Source of the DNA: Candidatus Latescibacterota bacterium
Lineage (GTDB): Bacteria > Latescibacterota > UBA2968 > GCA-2709665
Length of the DNA: 64,000 bases
Direction of reading: 5' to 3'
Assembly (NCBI GenBank): GCA_965116875.1
Contig: OZ220733.1
Location: 1,024,001 to 1,088,000 of the forward strand
The position numbers were made by a program, and so were the translations under genes. Below, in pieces: positions 2,370 through 17,543 of the stretch. Below the pieces are notes generated by a model. That model worked only from the letters and a program-made list of their open reading frames with translations, did no database searches and had not been told where the DNA came from. Every line of letters begins with the position of its first letter. The stretch's first letter is position 1.

Positions 2370-2455
2370 GCGGAAGTGGTGGAATTGGCAGACACGTCAG
2401 ATTTAGGATCTGGTGGGCATTGCCCGTGGGGGTTCGAGTCCCCCCTTCCGCACCA
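2370..2455 (+). tRNA. tRNA-Leu (TAG)
   Basis: GCGGAAG/CTTCCGC acceptor stem, D-arm GGAATTGGCAGAC, anticodon arm TCAGA-TTTAGGA-TCTGG, long variable arm, GGTTCGAGTCC T-loop, encoded CCA. Confidence 0.97.
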
Positions 2456-3925: not shown

Positions 3926-5781
3926 TCAGATACCTGATAGCTGTAGAGGTGGGACCCGCTTCCAAAGTATATCCGGCCGTCCAGGATGTCGCCACCCGGT
4001 CCTACGGGTACGGGCGATTCAGCCGGCATCCGTATTTCGTGCGTATCGGGTTCCACGATGGCGATACCCTTCGTGAAGAGGATGAAAATGGCGCCGTCCG
4101 GCGCGGTAACAAAAACCCTTGGGCCCTGCTGTGACGTCGTGGGCCCGAATTCGGCGTCGAGTTCCCGCTGGTGGACCACCTGTCTGTCGCCGGGATCGAA
4201 GACGAAAAAGCGCCTGCGGTCGGCGATCCCGTACACGACGCCGCTCGGGCCAGGGCACATATCGGTATACCCCTGGACGCCGGGGAAGACGGCCGCGTGC
4301 CAATCGAGCCGTTTCGTTTCCATATCCATAATATAGAGCTCCGCTTCGTCGGCCTTCTGTTCGCCGCCGGTGCCCGCACTGGTCGTCGTGCCGCCCAGCA
4401 GCCCGCCACCGGGCAGGGGAACCAGGCTCATGGTGGACTGGTCTGGCAGGACGTCGGTATGTTCCAGCAGCGTATGTTCACGGGTCTGCCTGTCCCAGAA
4501 CAGCAGCCCGCCGCCGGTAAGCCCGTACCCGGGGGTGCCGGCGAGCACGACGGTTCTTCCGTCCGGATGGGCAAGCAGCATGTGAGGGCGGTTGATGACC
4601 TCGTGGCATTCGTATAGCAGTTCCGGGTTGCAGCCCGCCTTGTCACGCTCGGTGCGCACCCACGGCTGCGCCGGGTCCCACTCCTCCAGGAGACCGTGTG
4701 TATATGCGCCGATGAAGAACATGTCGCCTTCTCTGGCGACGGTATTCCACTGTCCCAGCGCCGGACGGTTGATCCAGCTGCCGGTTTCCGGGTTGAAGCT
4801 GAAGAAGTGCATGGGGAATGCGGTTCCGCCGCAGATGGTATTGTCCGGAGCGGTGGCCACCCCCATGATGTGGGCGCCTTCGCTGGAGTAGTCGAAGGAC
4901 ACTTCGCGGGTCTCGCCGGTTCCGGGGTCCGCAACGGCCAGCGTGCGTTCCACGAGGCTGCACGAGACCATGCGTTTGCCGTCGGGAAAATCCGTGTGGA
5001 ACAGCCCCTGGCTGCCGGCAATGAAGGGTTTCTCACTTCTGTTTTCAATCTCTCCGATATCCGTCCGGTTTCCGCGATACAACTCCAACCAACCGTCCTC
5101 CGAACCGCCGCTGGTGTGCCCGTACACCTTCCCGTTCAGGTCGCGGTACACGGACGCATGGGCCTGGGTTCGTTCGCCTTCCGCCAGAAGCGGTTCCGCA
5201 CTTCCGCTCTCGGGGTCCAGGGAGATAATCTGACTGGCCGTGCTGCCGATGCCGAAATAGATCCAGCCGGTATCGTCAGCGGCGATTGCCCGGGGATACT
5301 GACGCCAGTTCTGGTCGTAGAGGTTTCCGTAGTCGCGAAACTCGCCGGTACCGGGGTGGTAGGATGCGACCGCACTGTTCGGATACGTTCCCGACCAGAT
5401 GCGTCCGTCGTCGTCCTCGGTCATGCTCATGGCCATCTGCGGCACGGTCTTGTGGAAGAACGTGAACGCGCGCTTCCCGGGGTCGAATTCGACGAAGTGG
5501 CTGTTGAAGTGCGTGTAATATCTGTTTTGGCTGGACAGGATGGCGGCAAACGGGCCGTCTCCGCCCGGCGGATAGGGCATGGGGAATTCGTCGGCCATAC
5601 CGGTTTCGGCGTCGATCATCAGCAGCGCGTATCCGCCCCGGTGGTCGTAAAGCCAGATCAGGACCACGTTGCGGCCCTCGCCGTCCACGGCAACGGTTGT
5701 ACCGCGATGGTTGCTGACGGGCGTGGCGACGCCGTGATGAAAGAAACCGTTACCCATCGCTTCGGTATTGGAACCAGACAT
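3922..5781 (-). CDS. uncharacterised beta-propeller repeat protein
   Basis: Recurrent DGxIW/YxGT-type blades (DDDGRIWSGTYP, PDNTICGGT, PDGRTVVLAGTPGYG). Start moved to ATG 5781, which follows GGAGG. Confidence 0.65.
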   Translation of the reverse strand: MSGSNTEAMGNGFFHHGVATPVSNHRGTTVAVDGEGRNVVLIWLYDHRGGYALLMIDAETGMADEFPMPYPPGGDGPFAAILSSQNRYYTHFNSHFVEFDPGKRAFTFFHKTVPQMAMSMTEDDDGRIWSGTYPNSAVASYHPGTGEFRDYGNLYDQNWRQYPRAIAADDTGWIYFGIGSTASQIISLDPESGSAEPLLAEGERTQAHASVYRDLNGKVYGHTSGGSEDGWLELYRGNRTDIGEIENRSEKPFIAGSQGLFHTDFPDGKRMVSCSLVERTLAVADPGTGETREVSFDYSSEGAHIMGVATAPDNTICGGTAFPMHFFSFNPETGSWINRPALGQWNTVAREGDMFFIGAYTHGLLEEWDPAQPWVRTERDKAGCNPELLYECHEVINRPHMLLAHPDGRTVVLAGTPGYGLTGGGLLFWDRQTREHTLLEHTDVLPDQSTMSLVPLPGGGLLGGTTTSAGTGGEQKADEAELYIMDMETKRLDWHAAVFPGVQGYTDMCPGPSGVVYGIADRRRFFVFDPGDRQVVHQRELDAEFGPTTSQQGPRVFVTAPDGAIFILFTKGIAIVEPDTHEIRMPAESPVPVGPGGDILDGRIYFGSGSHLYSYQVSD

Positions 5782-9492: not shown

Positions 9493-10347
9493 TCAGACAG
9501 GCTCCCGTTCATCAGGCGCCTCGGCCCGCTCAGGATCAGCGCAGGGTTCGAGCGGCATCCCGTCGCGATTTGCCATCTGATTGAACCACCGCAAACCGAC
9601 CAGTGCCAGGACGATACCGCAGGCAAACAGCCACCAGGGAAGAAACTCCACAATATGCCAATCCCCGATGGGTCGGATCATTTCATAACGGACAGATATC
9701 AATGAGAGAGAATTGCTCAGCGCGTGACCGAATAGCGCGGGCATCAAAGAACCCGTCCGTACGACCCACCACGCAAATACGAGCCCCAGTATCAAAGATC
9801 CGGAAAACTGCCATGGATTCATATGCATCGCGGCGAACAGTACTGCAGACCACAAAATGGCGCGCCGGCGGGTACCGTGGGCTAACAGCCCGCCCAGAAT
9901 AACGCCTCTGCAGAGGACCTCCTCGGTAAGCGGCGCTTGAATCGCGAGAACGTAAAACGCGAGACCAAATGGTGTTTTGCTCCCCATTAGATCAATGAAT
10001 ATGGCGAGTATTTCTTCGGGGATTGGAATCAGGTATTGGACGAAAGTTGCAATGTTGGTCACGACAAGGCCCAAACCCGCAATGGAAACGGAAAGTGGCA
10101 GGTACATTTTCCACGGCACTGTCCTGAAAAGCAGGATGTCGGACCAGGGCCGACCGGATCGACGTTGCGCGTATAACACGATCAGAGCGAAGACGGGGAG
10201 GTTTAGAATCCATCCCAGGTAATCGAAGATTCGTGTCTCCTTGCCGGACGCGGCACCGAGGAAATGAAGCACCAACCCCAATGCTTGCGTTGCCACCACA
10301 AGCAAGACCACCAGCCAAACGGACTGCTTCAGATTCGGATACGCCAT
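9493..10347 (-). CDS. CPBP (CAAX/Abi) intramembrane glutamic protease
   Basis: EEVLCRG, FAAMH and HALSN motifs; multiple hydrophobic segments; N-terminus MAYPNLKQS shared with the paralogs. Confidence 0.9.
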   Translation of the reverse strand: MAYPNLKQSVWLVVLLVVATQALGLVLHFLGAASGKETRIFDYLGWILNLPVFALIVLYAQRRSGRPWSDILLFRTVPWKMYLPLSVSIAGLGLVVTNIATFVQYLIPIPEEILAIFIDLMGSKTPFGLAFYVLAIQAPLTEEVLCRGVILGGLLAHGTRRRAILWSAVLFAAMHMNPWQFSGSLILGLVFAWWVVRTGSLMPALFGHALSNSLSLISVRYEMIRPIGDWHIVEFLPWWLFACGIVLALVGLRWFNQMANRDGMPLEPCADPERAEAPDEREPV

Positions 10348-10467: not shown

Positions 10468-11316
10468 TTATGACGGAAGGGGGCGCCTTTGGACATGCTC
10501 CGTGCCTGCGTTTGTTTCGACCTGCCCGCCTCTGCTTCCCGCCGCTTTCTTGAACCACCACAGTCCGATCAGGGCAAGGGAGACGCCGCAAACGTGCAGC
10601 CACCACGGAAGCAGCGTCCCGACGCTGATATGGTCTCTGGGTCCGAAAACCCCCAGATGTGCGGCCGTCACGATCAGGAAATTGTTCAGCGCGTGTCCCG
10701 CGATCGCCGGAAGCAGAGAGCCGGTCTGGACGACCCACAATGCGAATACGAGCCCCAATATCAGAGCGGTCGGATATTGCCATGGGTTCAGGTGCGATAC
10801 GGCGAACAGCAGTGACGACCAGACGATCGCACGGCTCCGCGTTCGGTTGGCAAGAAGGCCCCCCAGTATAACCCCCCTGAAGAAGACTTCCTTCGCAAGA
10901 GGCGCCTGTACCACCATGGCGTAAAACGTGAACGCGTACGGCGTCTCCCGCCGCGCCGTTCCCCCGAACAAATTCCGGACGTTTTCGGACACCGGAATCA
11001 GTTGCCGGAACAGGTTTCCCAGGTCCGAGCCTACAATTGCGACTCCAACAATACACACGCCGAGCGGCAGGTAGAGGCGCCACGAAACCGGATTGAGGAG
11101 CAGGATGTCGGACCACGTCCGGTCGGTTCGGCGGTACGCGTACATGACCGACAAAATGAAACCGGCCAATATCATAAACTGAATTACGTAGGGACTCTTG
11201 AGCAAGGACCGGTCTAGAATGGCGCCAAGAATGCCAAACGGCAGTGCCACCACAAGGGAGAACAGGAAGAACAGCACGACCAGCCACACGGACTGCCTCA
11301 GATTCGGATACGGCAT
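10468..11316 (-). CDS. CPBP intramembrane protease paralog with altered motif 1
   Basis: KEVFFRG instead of EExxxR, plus FAVSH and HALNN. Start MPYPNLRQS follows GGGAGG. Confidence 0.85.
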   Translation of the reverse strand: MPYPNLRQSVWLVVLFFLFSLVVALPFGILGAILDRSLLKSPYVIQFMILAGFILSVMYAYRRTDRTWSDILLLNPVSWRLYLPLGVCIVGVAIVGSDLGNLFRQLIPVSENVRNLFGGTARRETPYAFTFYAMVVQAPLAKEVFFRGVILGGLLANRTRSRAIVWSSLLFAVSHLNPWQYPTALILGLVFALWVVQTGSLLPAIAGHALNNFLIVTAAHLGVFGPRDHISVGTLLPWWLHVCGVSLALIGLWWFKKAAGSRGGQVETNAGTEHVQRRPLPS

Positions 11317-11825
11317 GTAATCCCTCCCGTATTGAATCGTTTGGACGACAGTACATCCGGAGACCCGCATTCCGGCGCCCGCCGCGATTTCGTTGTGCTC
11401 ATGACTTCGGCAAATCCTGCCACAATCGCAATCAGTGTCCTGCTGATTTGCCGCGCAATCCAGGTCAATACGCAAAATACGAGCCAAACTCGAACCAACG
11501 AATAACCCGATGTATATACGGGACTTAATTGAGATCGCGCGGCGAGTTGGAAAGTAGCGGACGTGTAGCAAAATGCGCCTGACCGCCCTATGGAGAGTTC
11601 CTCCCCCGCAAACGGAAGCACGATATTGGTTTATTCCTGCGGTGTTTTTGGACGCGAAGCGAACGGTCTGTCTGCAAATGACGTATTCTGCGTCGCATGG
11701 CGCGTTTTGCGACATCTGGCGACGGCCGAATGTGCGCGACGTCGTCCACCGAAGGCAACTGCCTGACCCGGCGTTGGAGTGCGCCGGCACACGATGGATG
11801 TTGAGGAGGACCATCAGGGAAGGGC

Positions 11826-12040
11826 ACAAAAAATCCCGCTCCATCCCTTGCCGTTCAGTGATGCGCACCTTAGCGGCACCCCGGTTAAAGGGTGCCGGGC
11901 AGTGTCACCACTCACGCAGCTTTTAGGATGCGGGAAGGTCCTACGTATTCACCGGGGACAAGGGAGCTACCCCTGCCCCTGAATGTCGGCTATTGTATTC
12001 GGTAGGCTACCCGACATACGGGTACTGCCCGAGTGGTGAC
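11826..12040 (-). ncRNA. candidate structured non-coding RNA or leader, family unassigned
   Basis: Multiple nested and alternative complementary segments directly downstream of a sigma70-like promoter, ending at a U6 tract (see findings). Confidence 0.5.
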
Positions 12041-12046
12041 AAACCA

Positions 12047-12075
12047 AATATAGTTTCCGCTTTCGTGAATGACAA
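12047..12075 (-). promoter_or_regulatory. sigma70-like promoter
   Basis: TTGTCA-N17-TATATT on the minus strand. Confidence 0.6.
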
Positions 12076-12264
12076 GGGCTAATTTGCGTCTTCAAAAAAT
12101 CTACGAGACCTGCGAGGCGCGATGTCGTGTGCCCGTCGGAAGCCGGTACATTGCAATGGTCGCCGGCTGCGGCGAAATACGCGAACCGGAGAACTGAAGT
12201 CGTGCCAGAATTGCTGATTGGCCGGTACTGGTGCATCGTGGCGGCACCAGCCTCCGTCTCGCGT

Positions 12265-13083
12265 CTACTCCCGGTTCTTCTTCGCGGTTTCCCAGATCGG
12301 GTAGTGGATTTCCGCCCGCTGATACTCACTCTGCAGCCACTGGCTGAACAGCGTATCGCGGATCTCGTTTGATACGCGATCGTCAAGGATTGCCGGAAAG
12401 TTCCGCTGCAGCATATACAACGCAAAACCGCCCGATGCCTTTTCGGGTCCGAAGACTTCACCCGGTGCGGCGGCGAAGAGGCGCGCCGCAATCCCCCTGG
12501 GCAACTGCCCGCGTCGGACTCGCCCGACAAAACCGCCGGACGGACCCGTGCGTTCATCCTGTGAGAATTCGCGGGCCATTCTGCAAAAATCAGCGCCTTC
12601 TTCTCTGGCCTGAAGCCCGATTTCGTCCATCACGCCCTTGTCACGGTGGAAAATCCAGCAGACTTCCGCCTCGTCGAAATCCAGCTTGTGTTGCGCGAAA
12701 TAGGGTTCGATCCTTCCGTCCACGACCTTGTCGGACAACGCGCGCTCCAACCGTTTCACCTGGGCGTCTTCCGCGACGTCCGCCAGGGTAATGCCCCGGG
12801 ACCGGAGCCACGCTTCTGTGTCTTCAACCCGTTCCAGCCGATGTCTATAGCGCCAGTCGTCCACGTCGCGCTGGATGTCTTCCGGCTTCACGCGGATGCC
12901 TTCCCGGACTGCAAGCTGGCGCACCAGTTCTCTGCGCGCGAATTCACCGAAGAAATCGAGTTTGTCGGCGACCCCCAGTTCACGGACGACCTGACTCAGC
13001 GACACGCCGGCGCCATTGACCTGGACGAGCGTGGTTTCCCGGGACGGAGTTGGGTTCCCGCCTTCCGCGCGAGGACTCATCAC
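12265..13083 (-). CDS. PpiC/parvulin-type peptidyl-prolyl isomerase associated with type I secretion
   Basis: F..MAREFSQD..TGPSGGFVG and PGEVFGP rotamase motifs; helical N-domain, no signal peptide; overlaps the HlyD stop. Confidence 0.8.
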   Translation of the reverse strand: MMSPRAEGGNPTPSRETTLVQVNGAGVSLSQVVRELGVADKLDFFGEFARRELVRQLAVREGIRVKPEDIQRDVDDWRYRHRLERVEDTEAWLRSRGITLADVAEDAQVKRLERALSDKVVDGRIEPYFAQHKLDFDEAEVCWIFHRDKGVMDEIGLQAREEGADFCRMAREFSQDERTGPSGGFVGRVRRGQLPRGIAARLFAAAPGEVFGPEKASGGFALYMLQRNFPAILDDRVSNEIRDTLFSQWLQSEYQRAEIHYPIWETAKKNRE

Positions 13084-14480
13084 GAGTCCTCCGGCTGAGC
13101 CGTCACCGCCCTGATGGCGTCGTACGTTGCTGATTCATAAAGCCTCCGCAGAGGACTCAGAAGCATCAGCAGGACGGATTGGCGGTCCGTCATGATCTCA
13201 GCGGTACCTTTCATGCCGAACAGGAGCGGCTTCTCCCGCCCCTTTACGTCCACGGTGGTTTCTTCCAATTCAACGACACCCCTGAAAACCGGTCCGACCG
13301 TCTCATCGATGACGGCATCCGGCGAGATCTGTTTGAGCCACCCGCGTTTGATTCCGAAATCCTGGAACGCGAAGGCGTCGTATTTCAGTTTCACGATCTG
13401 ACCCGGTTTCAGCATGCCCACGTCCTTGTTCAATACCGTGAGTTCGGCGACGATCGGGGCGGACGCCGGCGCTACCGAAACCAGCGCCTGCCCCTTGCTG
13501 ACGACCTGTCCGAGCGCATTCACCTCCACCCGCGTCACAATGCCGGATTCCGGCGCCAGTATGAGGTCAGACTCCGCTTCCAGCCGGCGGTCGACGCGTT
13601 TGCGCGCCTGTTCCAGTCTCAATCGCGCATTTTCGTACGCGTGTTTCATCTGTGACGCCTCGCGGCCATGCGCGATTCGCGTCTCCAGAATCTGACGCTT
13701 GAGGTCCTGGACGGCCGTCTCGTTCCTGTAGATTTCCGACATTCGTCCCGGAAGCGCCGCGAGTGCGCTCAGGTACCGTACACGCGCCTGATTGATATCC
13801 ACCCGGCTGATCAGTTTTCTCTGGAACAGCATCTTCTGCTGAAGATAGTCCTGCTTCAAATGATCGATTTCCGCCTGCCTGAAGCCGATCTGCGCCTGCA
13901 GTTCCGCCTCGGAATCGTTCCTTCCGGATCCTTCGGCATCACCCGCATCGTCATGGTAATCCCTGAGGGCGTTCTGATGCGCCGCCATGAACCGCTGCAG
14001 AACAGCCAGTCTCTTTTCGAGCGACGCGATCGTCTCCCGGTTCAATTCAGACTTCCGGGGCAAAACCTGATTGAAGTCGTACCCGGCCTGCTGATACGCC
14101 ATTTCCGCCTGTTCCAGTTCTCGAAGGTCTCCCCATGTTTCCCACGACTTCAGCTTGAACAGCAACTGGCCTTCTTCGATCCGATCGCCCTCGCTGACAC
14201 CGATGTGCTCGATCTCGCCGCCGCGACGCGCCTGCAACGTCTTCACCTTACCCAGGGGCACAAGTTGAAACGGCGCCGACGCCACAACGTCCACCTTGCC
14301 CCACCACGCCCAGACCACCGCGATCCCGACAAACAGAAGCACGACGTAGAGCAGCGCCCGCCCCCAGAACGGCCTCAGCGAACCGAAAAACGCCTGCATC
14401 TCCTCCGAGGCGTGCTCCCGCGCGGGCAGATGCATCGGTGACGACGCTCCCGACGATTCCGATTGTTGCGGTTCCGCCAT
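13080..14480 (-). CDS. HlyD-family secretion adaptor
   Basis: N-terminal TM, coiled coil, ILAPESGIV, KYDAFAFQDFG, ISPDA and GMKGTAEI. Confidence 0.9.
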   Translation of the reverse strand: MAEPQQSESSGASSPMHLPAREHASEEMQAFFGSLRPFWGRALLYVVLLFVGIAVVWAWWGKVDVVASAPFQLVPLGKVKTLQARRGGEIEHIGVSEGDRIEEGQLLFKLKSWETWGDLRELEQAEMAYQQAGYDFNQVLPRKSELNRETIASLEKRLAVLQRFMAAHQNALRDYHDDAGDAEGSGRNDSEAELQAQIGFRQAEIDHLKQDYLQQKMLFQRKLISRVDINQARVRYLSALAALPGRMSEIYRNETAVQDLKRQILETRIAHGREASQMKHAYENARLRLEQARKRVDRRLEAESDLILAPESGIVTRVEVNALGQVVSKGQALVSVAPASAPIVAELTVLNKDVGMLKPGQIVKLKYDAFAFQDFGIKRGWLKQISPDAVIDETVGPVFRGVVELEETTVDVKGREKPLLFGMKGTAEIMTDRQSVLLMLLSPLRRLYESATYDAIRAVTAQPEDS

Positions 14481-14507
14481 CCGATCGGCTCCTCGTCAAC
14501 CCCAGGT

Positions 14508-17500
14508 TCATGTCAATTGCAACTGCTGGCTGCACATGTGATAGTAGAGACCCCGGCGAAGCATCAGTTCTTCGTGCGTGCCGGTGTCGAGAATATGGCC
14601 CTTTTCCATTACGAGAATCGTGTCCGCGTCCCTCACCGTGCTCAGGCGATGGGCGATTACCAGGGACGTGCGGTTTTCCAGGAATAGCGCCAGATTGGAC
14701 TGGATGGCGGCCTCCGAGTCCGTATCCAGCGCATTTGTCGCTTCGTCGAAAATTAGGATTCCCGGATCGCGATACAACGCGCGCGCGATCGCGACCCGTT
14801 GGCGCTGCCCGCCGGACAATCCGATTCCCTGTTCGCCCACCTTCGTCTCGTATCCCAGGGGCATCTCGTTTACGAAGTCGTGGACACATGCCAATTTCGC
14901 AACTTCCAGGAGGCGGTCCATATTCGCGTCCGATTCTCCAACCGCGATGTTCTCGGCAATGGTTCCGCTGAAGAGAAAGGAGTCCTGCATGACCATGCCC
15001 ACCTGGCGGCGCAGCCAGTGAGGGTCGAAGTCGCGCACGTCCATCTCGTCCAGCAGCACACGGCCTTCCGTGGGATCGAAGAGGCGGGGCACGAGCTTGA
15101 CGAGCGTGGTCTTTCCGGCGCCGCTGCGTCCCACGATGGCGACCTTGTGTCCGGGCTTCAGTTCCAGGTCGATGTTGTTCAACACGTAGGGTTCATCGGT
15201 TCCGACGCCGTACCTGAAGAACACGTTCTCGAAGACCAGACGTCCTTCAACCTGCTTCAGTCTCAGGCCGTGTCCGCTCTGGCGCGCACTCTCCATCTTC
15301 GAGTCATAGACGTCATTCAGCCGGTCCAGGGCGACCCGGGCCTCCTGAACCTCGGGCCACACGCCGATCAAACCCATAATGGGGCCCATCACGTTGCCGA
15401 TGAGGGCGTTGAACGCCATCAATTGACCGACCGACAACTCACCGGCGATAACCAGGGAAGCGCCATACCACAGAATCACCGTGGAACTCAGCAGATTGAT
15501 CATGCTTCCGCCCGCGCCGAACAGCATCTCCATTTTCAATCGTCGGAATCCGATCTGGATTTCCCGGGTAAACTTGCCCTCCCACTGCCATCTCGTTACC
15601 CGTTCGACCGCTTCGGCTTTCACAACGTCGATCCCGTGCAGCGAATCGATCAGGACGGAGGACTGTTCAGCGCGGGCGAGAAATGCCCGCTGGCTGAAGG
15701 ACTTCAGGATCGGGGTATAGATCAGCGTCAGCCCGACGGAGAGCGGCACGAAGATCAACATCACGAGCGTCAACTCCCAGTTGTAGTAGAACATCAGTCC
15801 GAGATAGACGAACAACATGATAAAATCGAGTATCGCCGAAATGGTCGTGTCGGTGAACAGCCGCTGGATCGTCGCGTTTTCCTTGAATCGTGTGGTCAGA
15901 TCGCCGGTGCGGCGCAACGCGAAGAAGCGCATGGACAGGCCCAGCAGATGGCGGTAGAACCGGGACAGCATGGTGAGGCTCAGCCTGGCGCTGATATATC
16001 CGATCAGATACGCGCGCAGCGTCGAGGTACCCATCTGGAAGAGCGCGACGACGACCATACCCGCCAGCATCAGGTTCAAAAGGTCCTCGTCGTGATGCAC
16101 CAGCACCTGATCGACGATCGTCTGCGTGAAGACCGGCGAGGCGAGGCCGAACAGGCTGAGTACCAGGGACGCCAGCAGGACCTCGACCAGAATGGCCGTA
16201 TAGGGCTTTATCAGCGGCAAGAAACGCTTGAAGGAAGACCTTGAGGGTTCGTTCTCCGCCACCTGATCCGTGTATTCCAGGAGCAACGCCATATTGGTCC
16301 AGCTCTTCTCGAACTCCCCCCGCGCCATCCTGCGAACGCCCAAGCCGGGATCCGCGATTCTCACGTCTTTCCTGTTGATCTCGTACAATACCACGAAGTG
16401 ATTGCCTTCCCAGTGCAGAATCGCCGGAAGTCCGGTCCTCATCAGCGCTTCATAACCCGTGCGCACGCCCCGGGTGACGAATCCCAGCGTCTCCGCCGCC
16501 TCGGCCAATGCCGCCATAGATGTACCTTCCCGCGACACGTTGCACATATCGCGCAGCCGGTTCAACCCGATCGGCATCTTGTAATACTTGCAGATCATCC
16601 CCAGACACGCTGCCCCGCAGTCGGACTGATCGTGCTGCTTCAGGAACGGAAAACGAAAGGACGTCGATGTTCTGTGTTGCGCTTCAGACGTCCCGGTATT
16701 CGGGACGTCGTTTGTGGCGCCATTCGCCGCAACGGCGTTGTTCACCGCCGCCGTTTCCGCGTGGACGTGAATTCCGTCCGATTCAATCTCGCGGGACAGC
16801 GACCTTTCCGATCCAGGTTCCTGGTACAACCGGCTGGCTTTCTCTCTCAAGGGGGTTAATGCAAGGATCGATTGATTCAGGCCTTCCAGGTCGGGCTTTT
16901 CCAAAAGGTAGATAACGCTATTGACCCGGCTTCGGATCGTCCGTGACTCGCCACCTGAAGAGTCTGTCTCTTCGAAAAAATCCCCCGCGTCCAGAGAATG
17001 CGTGCTTCCGTCCTTGAGAATCACGTCCAACCCGCCGCTGCCCACCACGCAGAAACGCCCGCTCGAATGACCTGATTGCGTGAACGACGCGCCCTCGGCG
17101 ACCTCCTCTCGCTTCAGACGTTGGAACAACTCCCGCATCTCATCTCCGGAAACGGAGCCCTTCAGAAACCTCGTGAAATCCCGATACGCGATATTCGCAA
17201 CCTGATCCTGCAGATGGGCCCCCAGCTCCGGCTCTTTCTTCAATACGTTGAAGAAATCATCCTGCGTCACCCTCAGCACCACGGTGTCCTCCGCGGCTCG
17301 CACCGCAGCCCGATGGCCCTGCTCCGTCAACAGCGCCCCCTCGCCAAAGTGGTCGCCGGCGTACAAGAAGCCCGCGGTTTCAGGCTGGGCATTCGTATTC
17401 CGTTTGATCACTCGCAGCCGGCCGGATTCTACCAGGTAGAACGCATCGCCAGGCGCGCCCTGTTCAATGACAACCTCTCCGAAGCGAAACCGCACGGATT

Positions 17501-17543
17501 CCGGCTGATTCGACGACTGAGAAAAGTAGCTGAAGACGTCCAT
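14508..17543 (-). CDS. peptidase C39-containing ABC exporter with two N-terminal cNMP-binding-like domains
   Basis: QGAPGDAFYLVESG..GDHFGE (cNMP); QHDQSDCGAAC, HWEGNHFVV and IADP (intact Cys-His-Asp); GRSGAGKT and LSGGQRQR. Confidence 0.92.
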   Translation of the reverse strand: MDVFSYFSQSSNQPESVRFRFGEVVIEQGAPGDAFYLVESGRLRVIKRNTNAQPETAGFLYAGDHFGEGALLTEQGHRAAVRAAEDTVVLRVTQDDFFNVLKKEPELGAHLQDQVANIAYRDFTRFLKGSVSGDEMRELFQRLKREEVAEGASFTQSGHSSGRFCVVGSGGLDVILKDGSTHSLDAGDFFEETDSSGGESRTIRSRVNSVIYLLEKPDLEGLNQSILALTPLREKASRLYQEPGSERSLSREIESDGIHVHAETAAVNNAVAANGATNDVPNTGTSEAQHRTSTSFRFPFLKQHDQSDCGAACLGMICKYYKMPIGLNRLRDMCNVSREGTSMAALAEAAETLGFVTRGVRTGYEALMRTGLPAILHWEGNHFVVLYEINRKDVRIADPGLGVRRMARGEFEKSWTNMALLLEYTDQVAENEPSRSSFKRFLPLIKPYTAILVEVLLASLVLSLFGLASPVFTQTIVDQVLVHHDEDLLNLMLAGMVVVALFQMGTSTLRAYLIGYISARLSLTMLSRFYRHLLGLSMRFFALRRTGDLTTRFKENATIQRLFTDTTISAILDFIMLFVYLGLMFYYNWELTLVMLIFVPLSVGLTLIYTPILKSFSQRAFLARAEQSSVLIDSLHGIDVVKAEAVERVTRWQWEGKFTREIQIGFRRLKMEMLFGAGGSMINLLSSTVILWYGASLVIAGELSVGQLMAFNALIGNVMGPIMGLIGVWPEVQEARVALDRLNDVYDSKMESARQSGHGLRLKQVEGRLVFENVFFRYGVGTDEPYVLNNIDLELKPGHKVAIVGRSGAGKTTLVKLVPRLFDPTEGRVLLDEMDVRDFDPHWLRRQVGMVMQDSFLFSGTIAENIAVGESDANMDRLLEVAKLACVHDFVNEMPLGYETKVGEQGIGLSGGQRQRVAIARALYRDPGILIFDEATNALDTDSEAAIQSNLALFLENRTSLVIAHRLSTVRDADTILVMEKGHILDTGTHEELMLRRGLYYHMCSQQLQLT

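Follow-up and report, generated by a model that had tools for sequence, protein, structure and literature searches.

The element under study lay on the minus strand at positions 11826 to 12075 of a 64,000-nt window (the whole stretch of DNA analysed) from Candidatus Latescibacterota (assembly GCA_965116875.1, contig OZ220733.1). The RNA encoded there represents a multi-copy family of sponge-associated Latescibacterota that had not been described before, and we favour the reading, at a probability of about 0.6, that this family is composed of cis-acting, riboswitch-like leader RNAs (attenuators). The computed support consisted of (i) a structure backed by covariation, (ii) a promoter, (iii) two mutually exclusive folds of near-equal energy, (iv) co-variation of three strands, and (v) presence in RNA libraries. 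Structured cis-regulatory leaders and riboswitch candidates were already known as a kind, while the family itself was new.

In the favoured reading, a sigma-70-type promoter would start transcription 1–2 nt before a sensor domain of ~150 nt, in which a long outer stem P1 would enclose a hairpin arm (P3, invariant internal loop, P4, and P5) and a 9-bp pseudoknot would dock the 3′ tail on the strand immediately preceding P3. Past this core, a small hairpin would be followed by a strand repeating the P1 5′ arm; this repeat strand could capture the P1 3′ arm, and the resulting long alternative hairpin would end either in a U tract (intrinsic terminator; here 11847–11828) or in the Shine-Dalgarno (SD) sequence plus start codon of the next gene. 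The gene would be read as long as the sensor fold was held, and transcription would stop or the ribosome site would be hidden once the alternative hairpin won. An effector (small molecule, ion, or protein) would tip the balance between the two folds, presumably by stabilising the pseudoknot, such that binding and docking would keep the genes on. P1 was long and would be made first, and thus the effector-sensitive step would probably be the docking of the 3′ tail (pseudoknot), in competition with the 3′ hairpin, from which strand invasion would start.

Promoter, fold and covariation

The promoter TTGTCA-N17-TATATT, proposed in an earlier note on this DNA, was indeed located at 12075–12047(−), scored 10/12 (shuffles: mean 0.5), and was the sole sigma-70-like site within 11200–12400; GUCACCACUC (12040–12031) began six bases 3′ of TATATT. 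Across the family, a −35/−10 pair scoring at least 9/12 was present in the 50 nt upstream of 37 of the 81 distinct copies, versus 23 of 1414 random control positions, and for most of the 81, the −10 hexamer ended 5–6 nt ahead of model position 1; this constant spacing placed the RNA start at the foot of P1. The promoter and the predicted RNA features of the window copy were as follows, in the order of transcription:

12070..12075(−): −35 hexamer TTGTCA, from promoter scoring against shuffles
12047..12052(−): −10 hexamer TATATT behind a 17-nt spacer, with the predicted start at about 12041
12025..12040(−): P1 5′ arm (GUCACCACUCG.GCAG), pairing with 11919–11904; 96.9% paired, 15/15 pairs compensatory
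12007..12015(−): 5′ strand GUCGGGUAG of the pseudoknot P1′, directly 5′ of P3, pairing with 11902–11894
12002..12006(−): P3 5′ strand CCUAC, pairing with 11944–11940; 99.3% paired, 4/5 pairs covarying
11991..12001(−): internal-loop strand CGAAUACAAUA, invariant (A43, A44, T45, A46, A48, A49, and A51 invariant in 58 copies)
11987..11990(−): P4 5′ strand GCCG, pairing with 11954–11951; 96.3% paired, 4/4 pairs covarying
11955..11979(−): P5 hairpin GGGGCAGGGG-UAGCU-CCCUUGUCCC; 83.1% paired, 10/10 pairs covarying
11945..11954(−): P4 3′ strand CGGU plus conserved loop strand GAAUAC, from covariation and column conservation
11940..11944(−): P3 3′ strand GUAGG, pairing with the P3 5′ strand
11926..11936(−): segment B UUCCCGCAUCC, candidate 5′ arm of the terminator stem (−15 to −21 kcal/mol with the pre-U-tract strand), alternative partner GUCGGG
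11904..11919(−): P1 3′ arm (CUGCGUGAGUGGUGAC), putative shared switching strand, with 12040–12025 or the downstream 5′-arm copy as partner
11894..11902(−): 3′ strand CUGCCCGGC of the pseudoknot P1′, directly 3′ of P1
11874..11897(−): 3′ hairpin CGGCACCC-loop-GGGUGCCG; 84% paired and 5/8 pairs double-changed in the MAFFT alignment
11857..11863(−): anti-P1 strand CAUCACU, a near-copy of the 5′ arm, whose partner in the minimum-energy fold is AGUGGUG of the 3′ arm
11828..11847(−): terminator 3′ arm GGGAUGGAGCGGGA plus U6 tract (11833–11828), from pairing and the minimum-energy fold; metatranscriptome contig end at 11833

The RNA folded over 220 nt at −93.9 kcal/mol, compared to −79.1 ± 4.95 kcal/mol for 200 dinucleotide shuffles (z = −2.99), none of which was as stable. 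This comparison had been named as a check in the earlier note, as had a search for homologues with covariation, which likewise turned out in favour of the structured RNA: a family was found, and 33 of 34 modelled pairs displayed compensatory double changes. The pair counts were made on 84 model-aligned matches (81 distinct) in an alignment fitted to the covariance model R1 (145 positions and 34 pairs, built from 58 copies), and thus the modelled stems were favoured in them. RNAalifold on a MAFFT alignment recovered only P1 plus fragments, and the structure was therefore hand-set from the window copy and then checked by pair counts. All modelled stems taken together were 93.2% paired, versus 72.8% after shuffling and 32–46% with partners slid by 1–3 columns; the independent MAFFT alignment agreed (90.8% paired versus 79.7%, 30/43 pairs double-changed). 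The 10-bp outer stem, formed by GUCACCACUC and its exact complement GAGUGGUGAC (11913–11904), was double-changed together with GCAG/CUGC at 15/15 pairs, and this stem, CCUAC/GUAGG of P3, the GGGGCAGGGG/CCCUUGUCCC pairing, and the CGGCACCC/GGGUGCCG hairpin had all been drawn correctly from the window copy in the earlier note. The internal loop between P3 and P4 (CGAAUACAAUA opposite GAAUAC) was invariant or nearly so.

Two elements had not been included in that note, namely the pseudoknot 12015–12007/11902–11894 and the downstream copy of the 5′ arm. The pseudoknot helix GUCGGGUAG/CUGCCCGGC was 98.5% paired in the 81 distinct copies, versus 90.5% after shuffling and 21–51% with slid partners; 5/9 of its pairs were double-changed, with 45 double-changed cells against 9.2 expected (reached by none of 500 shuffles), and one pair alone appeared as AU in 40 copies, GC in 12, GU in 10, CG in 8, and UG in 8, with no copy unpaired. 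This helix stood outside the covariance model, and P1 crossed it, which made the fold a pseudoknot. Judged from these aligned sequences, the putative pseudoknot is the best-supported tertiary element and the most telling of all helices.

Other pairings proposed from the window copy dissolved when the family was counted: GGGCAGU/ACUGCCC (62.1% paired versus 61.1% shuffled), AUUCA/UGAAU (34.2% versus 33.3%), and AUGUCGG/CCGACAU (66.8% versus 65.9%) were window-specific chance pairings, and CUAAGG was not conserved beyond the genus in an alignment judged by eye. The proposed CGGG/CCCG pairing, extended to GUCGGG (within 12015–12007) with UUCCCGC of segment B, fared between these extremes, being weakly supported at 86.5% versus 83.2%. 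Two further candidates, the hairpin ACCCG/CGGGU and a 4-bp CGCA/UGCG hairpin, did not exceed chance (85.3% versus 84.4%) and were rejected.

Copies of the RNA were present in two metatranscriptome studies. In a sponge metatranscriptome, a 211-nt contig covered only 11833–12035 at an identity of at least 99%, bordered by the first U of the U6 tract (11833–11828) and by a point inside the P1 5′ arm, while a DNA run spanned both borders (11654–12105). In the second study, a 209-nt contig (depth 17) matched 11881–12033 at 95–99% and then diverged, and it was thus assigned to a relative's copy. These assembled contigs, of a kind unable to prove RNA ends, hint at a discrete transcript of ~205 nt.

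Mutually exclusive pairings and expression platforms

The full 220-nt transcript up to the U tract had the terminator fold as its minimum-energy fold (−94.3 kcal/mol), while the sensor fold reached −93.9 kcal/mol, as computed for an equally long stretch lying 4 nt further upstream; the terminator hairpin and the sensor fold were mutually exclusive and of near-equal energy. In the terminator fold, segment B (11936–11926) paired with GGGAUGGAGCGGGA (11847–11834), the P1 3′ arm paired with CAUCACU (11863–11857), the 3′ hairpin stood at the tip, and U6 followed. The UCCCGC/GCGGGA pairing before the U tract, already pointed out in the earlier note, was part of this fold and was the best pairing available to the pre-U strand in 10/13 same-genus copies. 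The 3′ hairpin and the pseudoknot 3′ strand shared 4 nt. The terminator stem was long-range, with the pseudoknot strand and the 3′ hairpin inside its loop, and was thus missed by a simple terminator scan.

The same arrangement recurred across the family: 17 of 59 copies, from five sequence subgroups, had a tract of at least five U within 100 nt, with the preceding 14 nt pairing to segment B or to the P1 3′ arm at −15 kcal/mol or below. These terminators were of two types: (i) the segment-B type in 10 same-genus copies, L019, L024, L031, and L064 (nine perfect pairs) and (ii) the P1-3′-arm type in L028, L058, and L090; the terminator partner was ambiguous in two further same-genus copies.

The anti-P1 strand was sought within +18 to +120 after the core; the stretch that paired best with the P1 3′ arm lay at +19 to +40, directly behind the 3′ hairpin, in 52 of 79 copies. 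The free energy of this duplex was −12 kcal/mol or below in 47 of those 52, which makes 59% of the 79 copies, versus 23% of 983 pairings between arms and unrelated downstream regions; this count was cleaner than the per-copy z-scores, which suffered in the same-genus group from a shortage of unrelated comparators and were unreliable there. The anti-P1 strand mirrored the 5′ arm of its own copy, GUCAACCAUC recurring as CGUCAACCAUC and GCCAUCACCACAGCAG as CGCCACCAUUUACAGCAGA, so that the 5′ arm, the 3′ arm, and the downstream copy changed together. In many copies, this strand continued as CACRCAGG or CGGAGG, that is, into the SD sequence. Where the downstream strand differed from the 5′ arm, 80 of 159 differing positions still paired with the 3′ arm (a count biased toward pairing by the duplex optimiser), and this pattern argues for selection at the RNA level rather than for a direct repeat in the DNA.

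A small mobile or recombination DNA element without any RNA device, either MITE-like (miniature inverted-repeat transposable element) with inverted repeats plus a flanking direct repeat or a cassette site, would also account for a multi-copy family whose arms are inverted repeats and whose 5′ arm recurs downstream; it could further draw on four identical copies lying in one genome inside a repeat with an IS1-type transposase (see below), and on the integron cassettes in which a weakly similar RNA, sRNA-Xcc1, is placed by a 2025 preprint (10.1101/2025.06.18.660453). We hold this to be very improbable: the arms varied among copies yet stayed complementary, whereas a transposase site would keep its sequence, half of the downstream-strand differences just counted preserved pairing, the promoter stood at a constant distance, no viral contig matched, and the 13 same-genus copies were syntenic.

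It is distinctly unlikely that the family is a constitutive promoter-plus-5′-untranslated-region module (mRNA stabiliser or translation enhancer), spread through duplication together with paralogous secreted-protein genes and devoid of switching. The near-consensus promoter fused at a constant distance, the long and stable P1, the heterogeneous downstream genes, and the clustering of copies (two in L064 and two in L023) would all suit such a module, but it would leave unexplained the conserved pseudoknot with its invariant internal loop, the terminators made from sensor strands, and the downstream strand that tracks the P1 arm.

Family distribution and downstream genes

BLAST against 40 relatives gave near full-length matches of 85–94% identity in 13 of 14 same-genus genomes, all 13 copies being syntenic, while other genera had matches of 70–83% over the central ~170 nt, frequently with several in the same genome. 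A 28-letter conserved-core pattern, searched in one genome each of 185,579 species, hit 59 loci, labelled as Latescibacterota/Latescibacteria (51), Gemmatimonadota (5, sponge bins), Poribacteria (2), and 'uncultured bacterium' (1); the same pattern had no match in viral contigs. Of 151 genomes drawn from across the phylum, 62 had R1 matches at E ≤ 1e-3 (~200 matches in all, as many as 13 in a single genome), and 11 of 46 genera were represented; by family, the counts of matching genomes were 16/18 in f1, 19/30 in f2, 25/64 in f3, 1/1 in f7, and 0/37 in ten others. The Poribacteria-labelled matches came from only the same two of 81 genomes of that phylum; the three matches began no more than ~1,100 bases from a contig end, on contigs of which two measured only 2.3 and 1.8 kb, and they are thus probably binning strays.

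The window's own genome had one diverged second copy outside the window, detected by the covariance model (57.8 bits, lacking P5) and not found by BLAST; it was located at G000:C1:4573720-4573830(+), corresponding to L095:1501-1611, and the protein encoded from 176 nt downstream of it (373 aa) combined a hydrophobic N-terminus with a dockerin match. Four identical copies in one relative's genome (L015, L016, L017, and L018) lay within a longer repeat that also carried a 210-aa open reading frame (ORF; hydrophobic N-terminus, no Pfam family) and an IS1-type transposase, and there the leader-plus-gene module appears to have been mobilised. Clustered or tandem copies ~340 nt to 3.6 kb apart (L064:1409-1556 and 1895-2037(−); L023:213-358 and 3999-4142(+)) suggest local duplication of leader-gene units. 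In L054, L057, L070, and L088, resemblance to the RNA ran through the 5′ half as far as the P5 region and was lost beyond it, and these may be decayed or rearranged copies. In a relative, a group II intron lay ~1.3 kb downstream of one RNA copy, at L020:5450-6208(+) (D1-D4, 102 bits; domain V-VI, 46.9 bits).

The starts of the first SD-preceded ORFs peaked shortly after the core: 27 of 76 fell at +40 to +59, versus 9 in each of the neighbouring 20-nt bins. Among the 28 ORFs starting at +35 to +60, a strongly hydrophobic N-terminus was scored in 20 and a lipobox-like motif in 11, by a crude heuristic rather than by SignalP. A Pfam search covered 36 downstream proteins (plus three window neighbours) and then 12 more with two repeats, and the matches were distributed over loci as follows:

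ankyrin repeats: L036 and L068
WD40: L019, L078, and L086
LRR: L113
dockerin: L090, L095, and L096
collagen repeat: L100
leishmanolysin-like peptidase: L098 (L097 just under the cut-off)
OMP beta-barrel: L029
DUF7424: L053
DUF1232: L050
tRNA_anti-like: L034
MunI restriction enzyme: L026
IS1595 transposase: L065

At L100:1696-1845(+), a collagen-like ORF with G-X-Y repeats started 50 nt after an RNA copy (Pfam Collagen, E 3e-9). No Pfam family was found at E ≤ 0.01 for 18 of the 36 downstream proteins searched first. By these sequence features, the downstream set was dominated by exported, envelope (lipoprotein, signal-peptide), and eukaryote-like proteins.

The window copy and its 12 same-genus orthologues differed in gene context, with CPBP proteases as the next genes at ~190–510 nt past the terminator:

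10468..11316(−): CPBP/Rce1-like intramembrane protease, first downstream gene, 510 nt past the U tract (PF02517, E 5.9e-19)
9493..10347(−): second CPBP/Rce1-like gene (PF02517, E 1.5e-18)

The 510-nt spacer from the U tract to the first CPBP gene, 11317-11827(−), retained blocks conserved among same-genus orthologues, and these blocks included TTGCTACACGTCCGC ... TATATACAT, a possible separate promoter; the orthologues L012 and L013 lacked ~400 nt of this spacer. The earlier note had called the element a switchable cis-leader for the two CPBP genes or an independent non-coding RNA. The kind was upheld by the promoter spacing, the covariation, the RNA libraries, and the exclusive platforms, while the link to the two CPBP genes was not, given the U6 terminator, the stop of the RNA contig, and the 510-nt spacer.

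These last observations bear on the alternative of a stand-alone, trans-acting small RNA (sRNA) of ~205 nt with its own terminator, to which the downstream genes would be mere neighbours. The RNA contig, spanning just 11833–12035 and ending at the U tract, the 510 nt with conserved blocks and a possible promoter before the CPBP gene, five copies with ordinary terminators at +110 to +140 and no nearby ORF, and an only Rfam likeness to an RNA named as a trans-acting sRNA would all fit. Terminated riboswitch leaders also accumulate as short RNAs, however, and thus the contig does not discriminate cis from trans, and both roles may coexist; moreover, start codons clustered at +40 to +59, and in many copies the anti-P1 strand entered the SD/start region while tracking the copy's own P1. 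We therefore regard an sRNA acting solely in trans as unlikely.

Several observations nevertheless weigh against a cis-acting switch, the reading preferred here. (i) At the window copy, the next gene lay 510 nt past the terminator, possibly behind its own promoter, and the RNA evidence was for the short form only. (ii) The ordinary strong terminators 110–140 nt downstream in one subgroup (L044, L045, L075, L085, and L093) had no overlap with the sensor. (iii) A naive count of ORFs within 150 nt (58/81, versus 35/81 on the divergent-side control) separated the two sides weakly. (iv) The complementarity between start region and linker was modest (own pairs −15.4 kcal/mol, foreign pairs −13.1 kcal/mol). 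(v) The Pfam matches of the downstream proteins included no transporter and no biosynthetic gene, and so suggested no ligand. (vi) P1 had ~15 bp, far more than the ligand-gated P1 helices usual in riboswitches, and with a P1 so long the sensor fold may form by default. (vii) Related copies were not independent of one another in the counts.

Relation to known RNAs and remaining features of the window

Rfam 15 includes no family for the Latescibacterota RNA. A scan of 11000–13000 at E ≤ 10 gave no match to any ribozyme, 6S, SRP, tmRNA, RNase P, T-box, cobalamin, or riboswitch family, in line with the earlier note, which had matched the RNA to none of the SRP, tmRNA, RNase P, T-box, and cobalamin consensus sequences. 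Its loose comparison to a hepatitis delta virus (HDV)-like ribozyme did not hold up in the same scan, and a self-cleaving ribozyme, HDV-like or of a new class, is accordingly given very little credence: a pseudoknotted multi-copy RNA with invariant unpaired nucleotides would be compatible with it, but the metatranscriptome contig ran unbroken through the domain across 11833–12035, and the logic of the expression platform requires no cleavage.

The only Rfam model to respond was sRNA-Xcc1 (RF02221), at 26.1 bits on 11886–12015 and hence far below the gathering cut-off of 53 bits; at E ≤ 10, this model matched nowhere else in the 5.45-Mb genome. Among the other copies, L023 scored 29.7 bits, and seven of eight other loci scanned had no match. 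The 9-bp closing helix of the RF02221 model aligned to the pseudoknot GUCGGGUAG/CUGCCCGGC, and its first hairpin, which shares the loop words AAUACAAUA and GAAUA, aligned to P3 plus P4, so that a 9-bp closing helix followed by a hairpin with an AUACAAuA/GAAu loop was found on 12015–11945 and 11902–11894; the CGAAUACAAUA segment (11991..12001) aligned to AUACAAuA, and the 3′ CACCCUUU tail of the model aligned as well. A leader position would also fit what a preprint reports for sRNA-Xcc1, which sits upstream of symE in Xanthomonas integron cassettes (10.1101/2025.06.18.660453). The two RNAs differed in several respects: (i) the alignment required 32- and 22-nt insertions; (ii) the model's second hairpin (positions about 52–70) was not formed, its place being taken by segment B plus the P1 3′ arm; (iii) the Latescibacterota RNA added a 15-bp outer stem formed with a 5′ extension, P5, the 3′ hairpin, and the anti-P1 platform; and (iv) the phylum and the gene context were different, with PpiC, HlyD, C39-ABC, and CPBP as the neighbours here. 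The comparison points to a shared core motif and possibly distant homology with sRNA-Xcc1, not to membership. The original sRNA-Xcc1 paper is PMC2996969, and RF02221 is listed in the Rfam 15 paper among the families improved by R-scape (PMC11701678). The listed titles and opening lines of abstracts on sRNA-Xcc1, on Latescibacter riboswitches, and on eukaryotic-like proteins of sponge symbionts together with non-coding RNA contained nothing on this family; for the last topic, cyanophage infection in a sponge symbiont was the only subject that turned up.

Both a conserved structured domain backed by covariation and, by computation alone, an expression platform with mutually exclusive pairings were found, as in riboswitches. 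The RNA resembled the pseudoknotted riboswitches ZTP/pfl, preQ1, SAM-II, and c-di-GMP-II in its putative 5′-untranslated position behind the element's own promoter, in covarying stems around invariant loop nucleotides, in a 3′ tail that would dock as a pseudoknot, and in a family predicted to use both transcriptional and translational platforms; the presence of many copies in a genome, before unrelated genes, was reminiscent of second-messenger riboswitches. It differed from them in its unusually long P1, in the lack of a match to any Rfam riboswitch model, and in a gene set composed almost wholly of secreted, envelope, or eukaryote-like repeat proteins and free of metabolic and transport genes. 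As in intrinsic-terminator attenuators, a U6–U8 tract followed a stem whose 5′ strand was shared with an upstream alternative structure, but the terminator stem was long-range here.

Eukaryote-like repeat proteins and secreted lipoproteins are thought to mediate the dealings of sponge symbionts with the host, and we know of no regulator of these genes in such symbionts. The same pseudoknotted leader with its own promoter before dozens of such genes per lineage would make a candidate regulon with a concrete sensor, and this RNA of an uncultured phylum may represent an orphan riboswitch. A more specific proposal, tentative and on balance doubtful, is that the pseudoknotted aptamer is a new riboswitch class sensing a second messenger or a host-derived signal and switching on secreted lipoproteins plus eukaryote-like proteins (ankyrin, WD40, LRR, dockerin, collagen-like, and leishmanolysin-like) in sponge symbionts, with sRNA-Xcc1 as a minimal relative of the same aptamer; sRNA-Xcc1 may then be recast as a cis-acting leader. 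If an effector exists, the compact 150-nt domain would suit biochemistry and use as a genetic part, and even a plain sRNA would be new as an expressed RNA family absent from Rfam 15.

Elsewhere in the window, the sole Rfam match at gathering scores was a tRNA-Leu gene at 2370-2455(+), and ARAGORN found one tRNA and no tmRNA. The upstream neighbours on the strand of the RNA formed an operon-like row, 12265-17543(−), composed of an exporter (N-terminal cyclic-nucleotide-binding domain fused to C39-peptidase and ABC domains), HlyD, and a PpiC-type rotamase (12265-13083); this row looks like a peptide-export system, with a putative link to the RNA and the CPBP genes.

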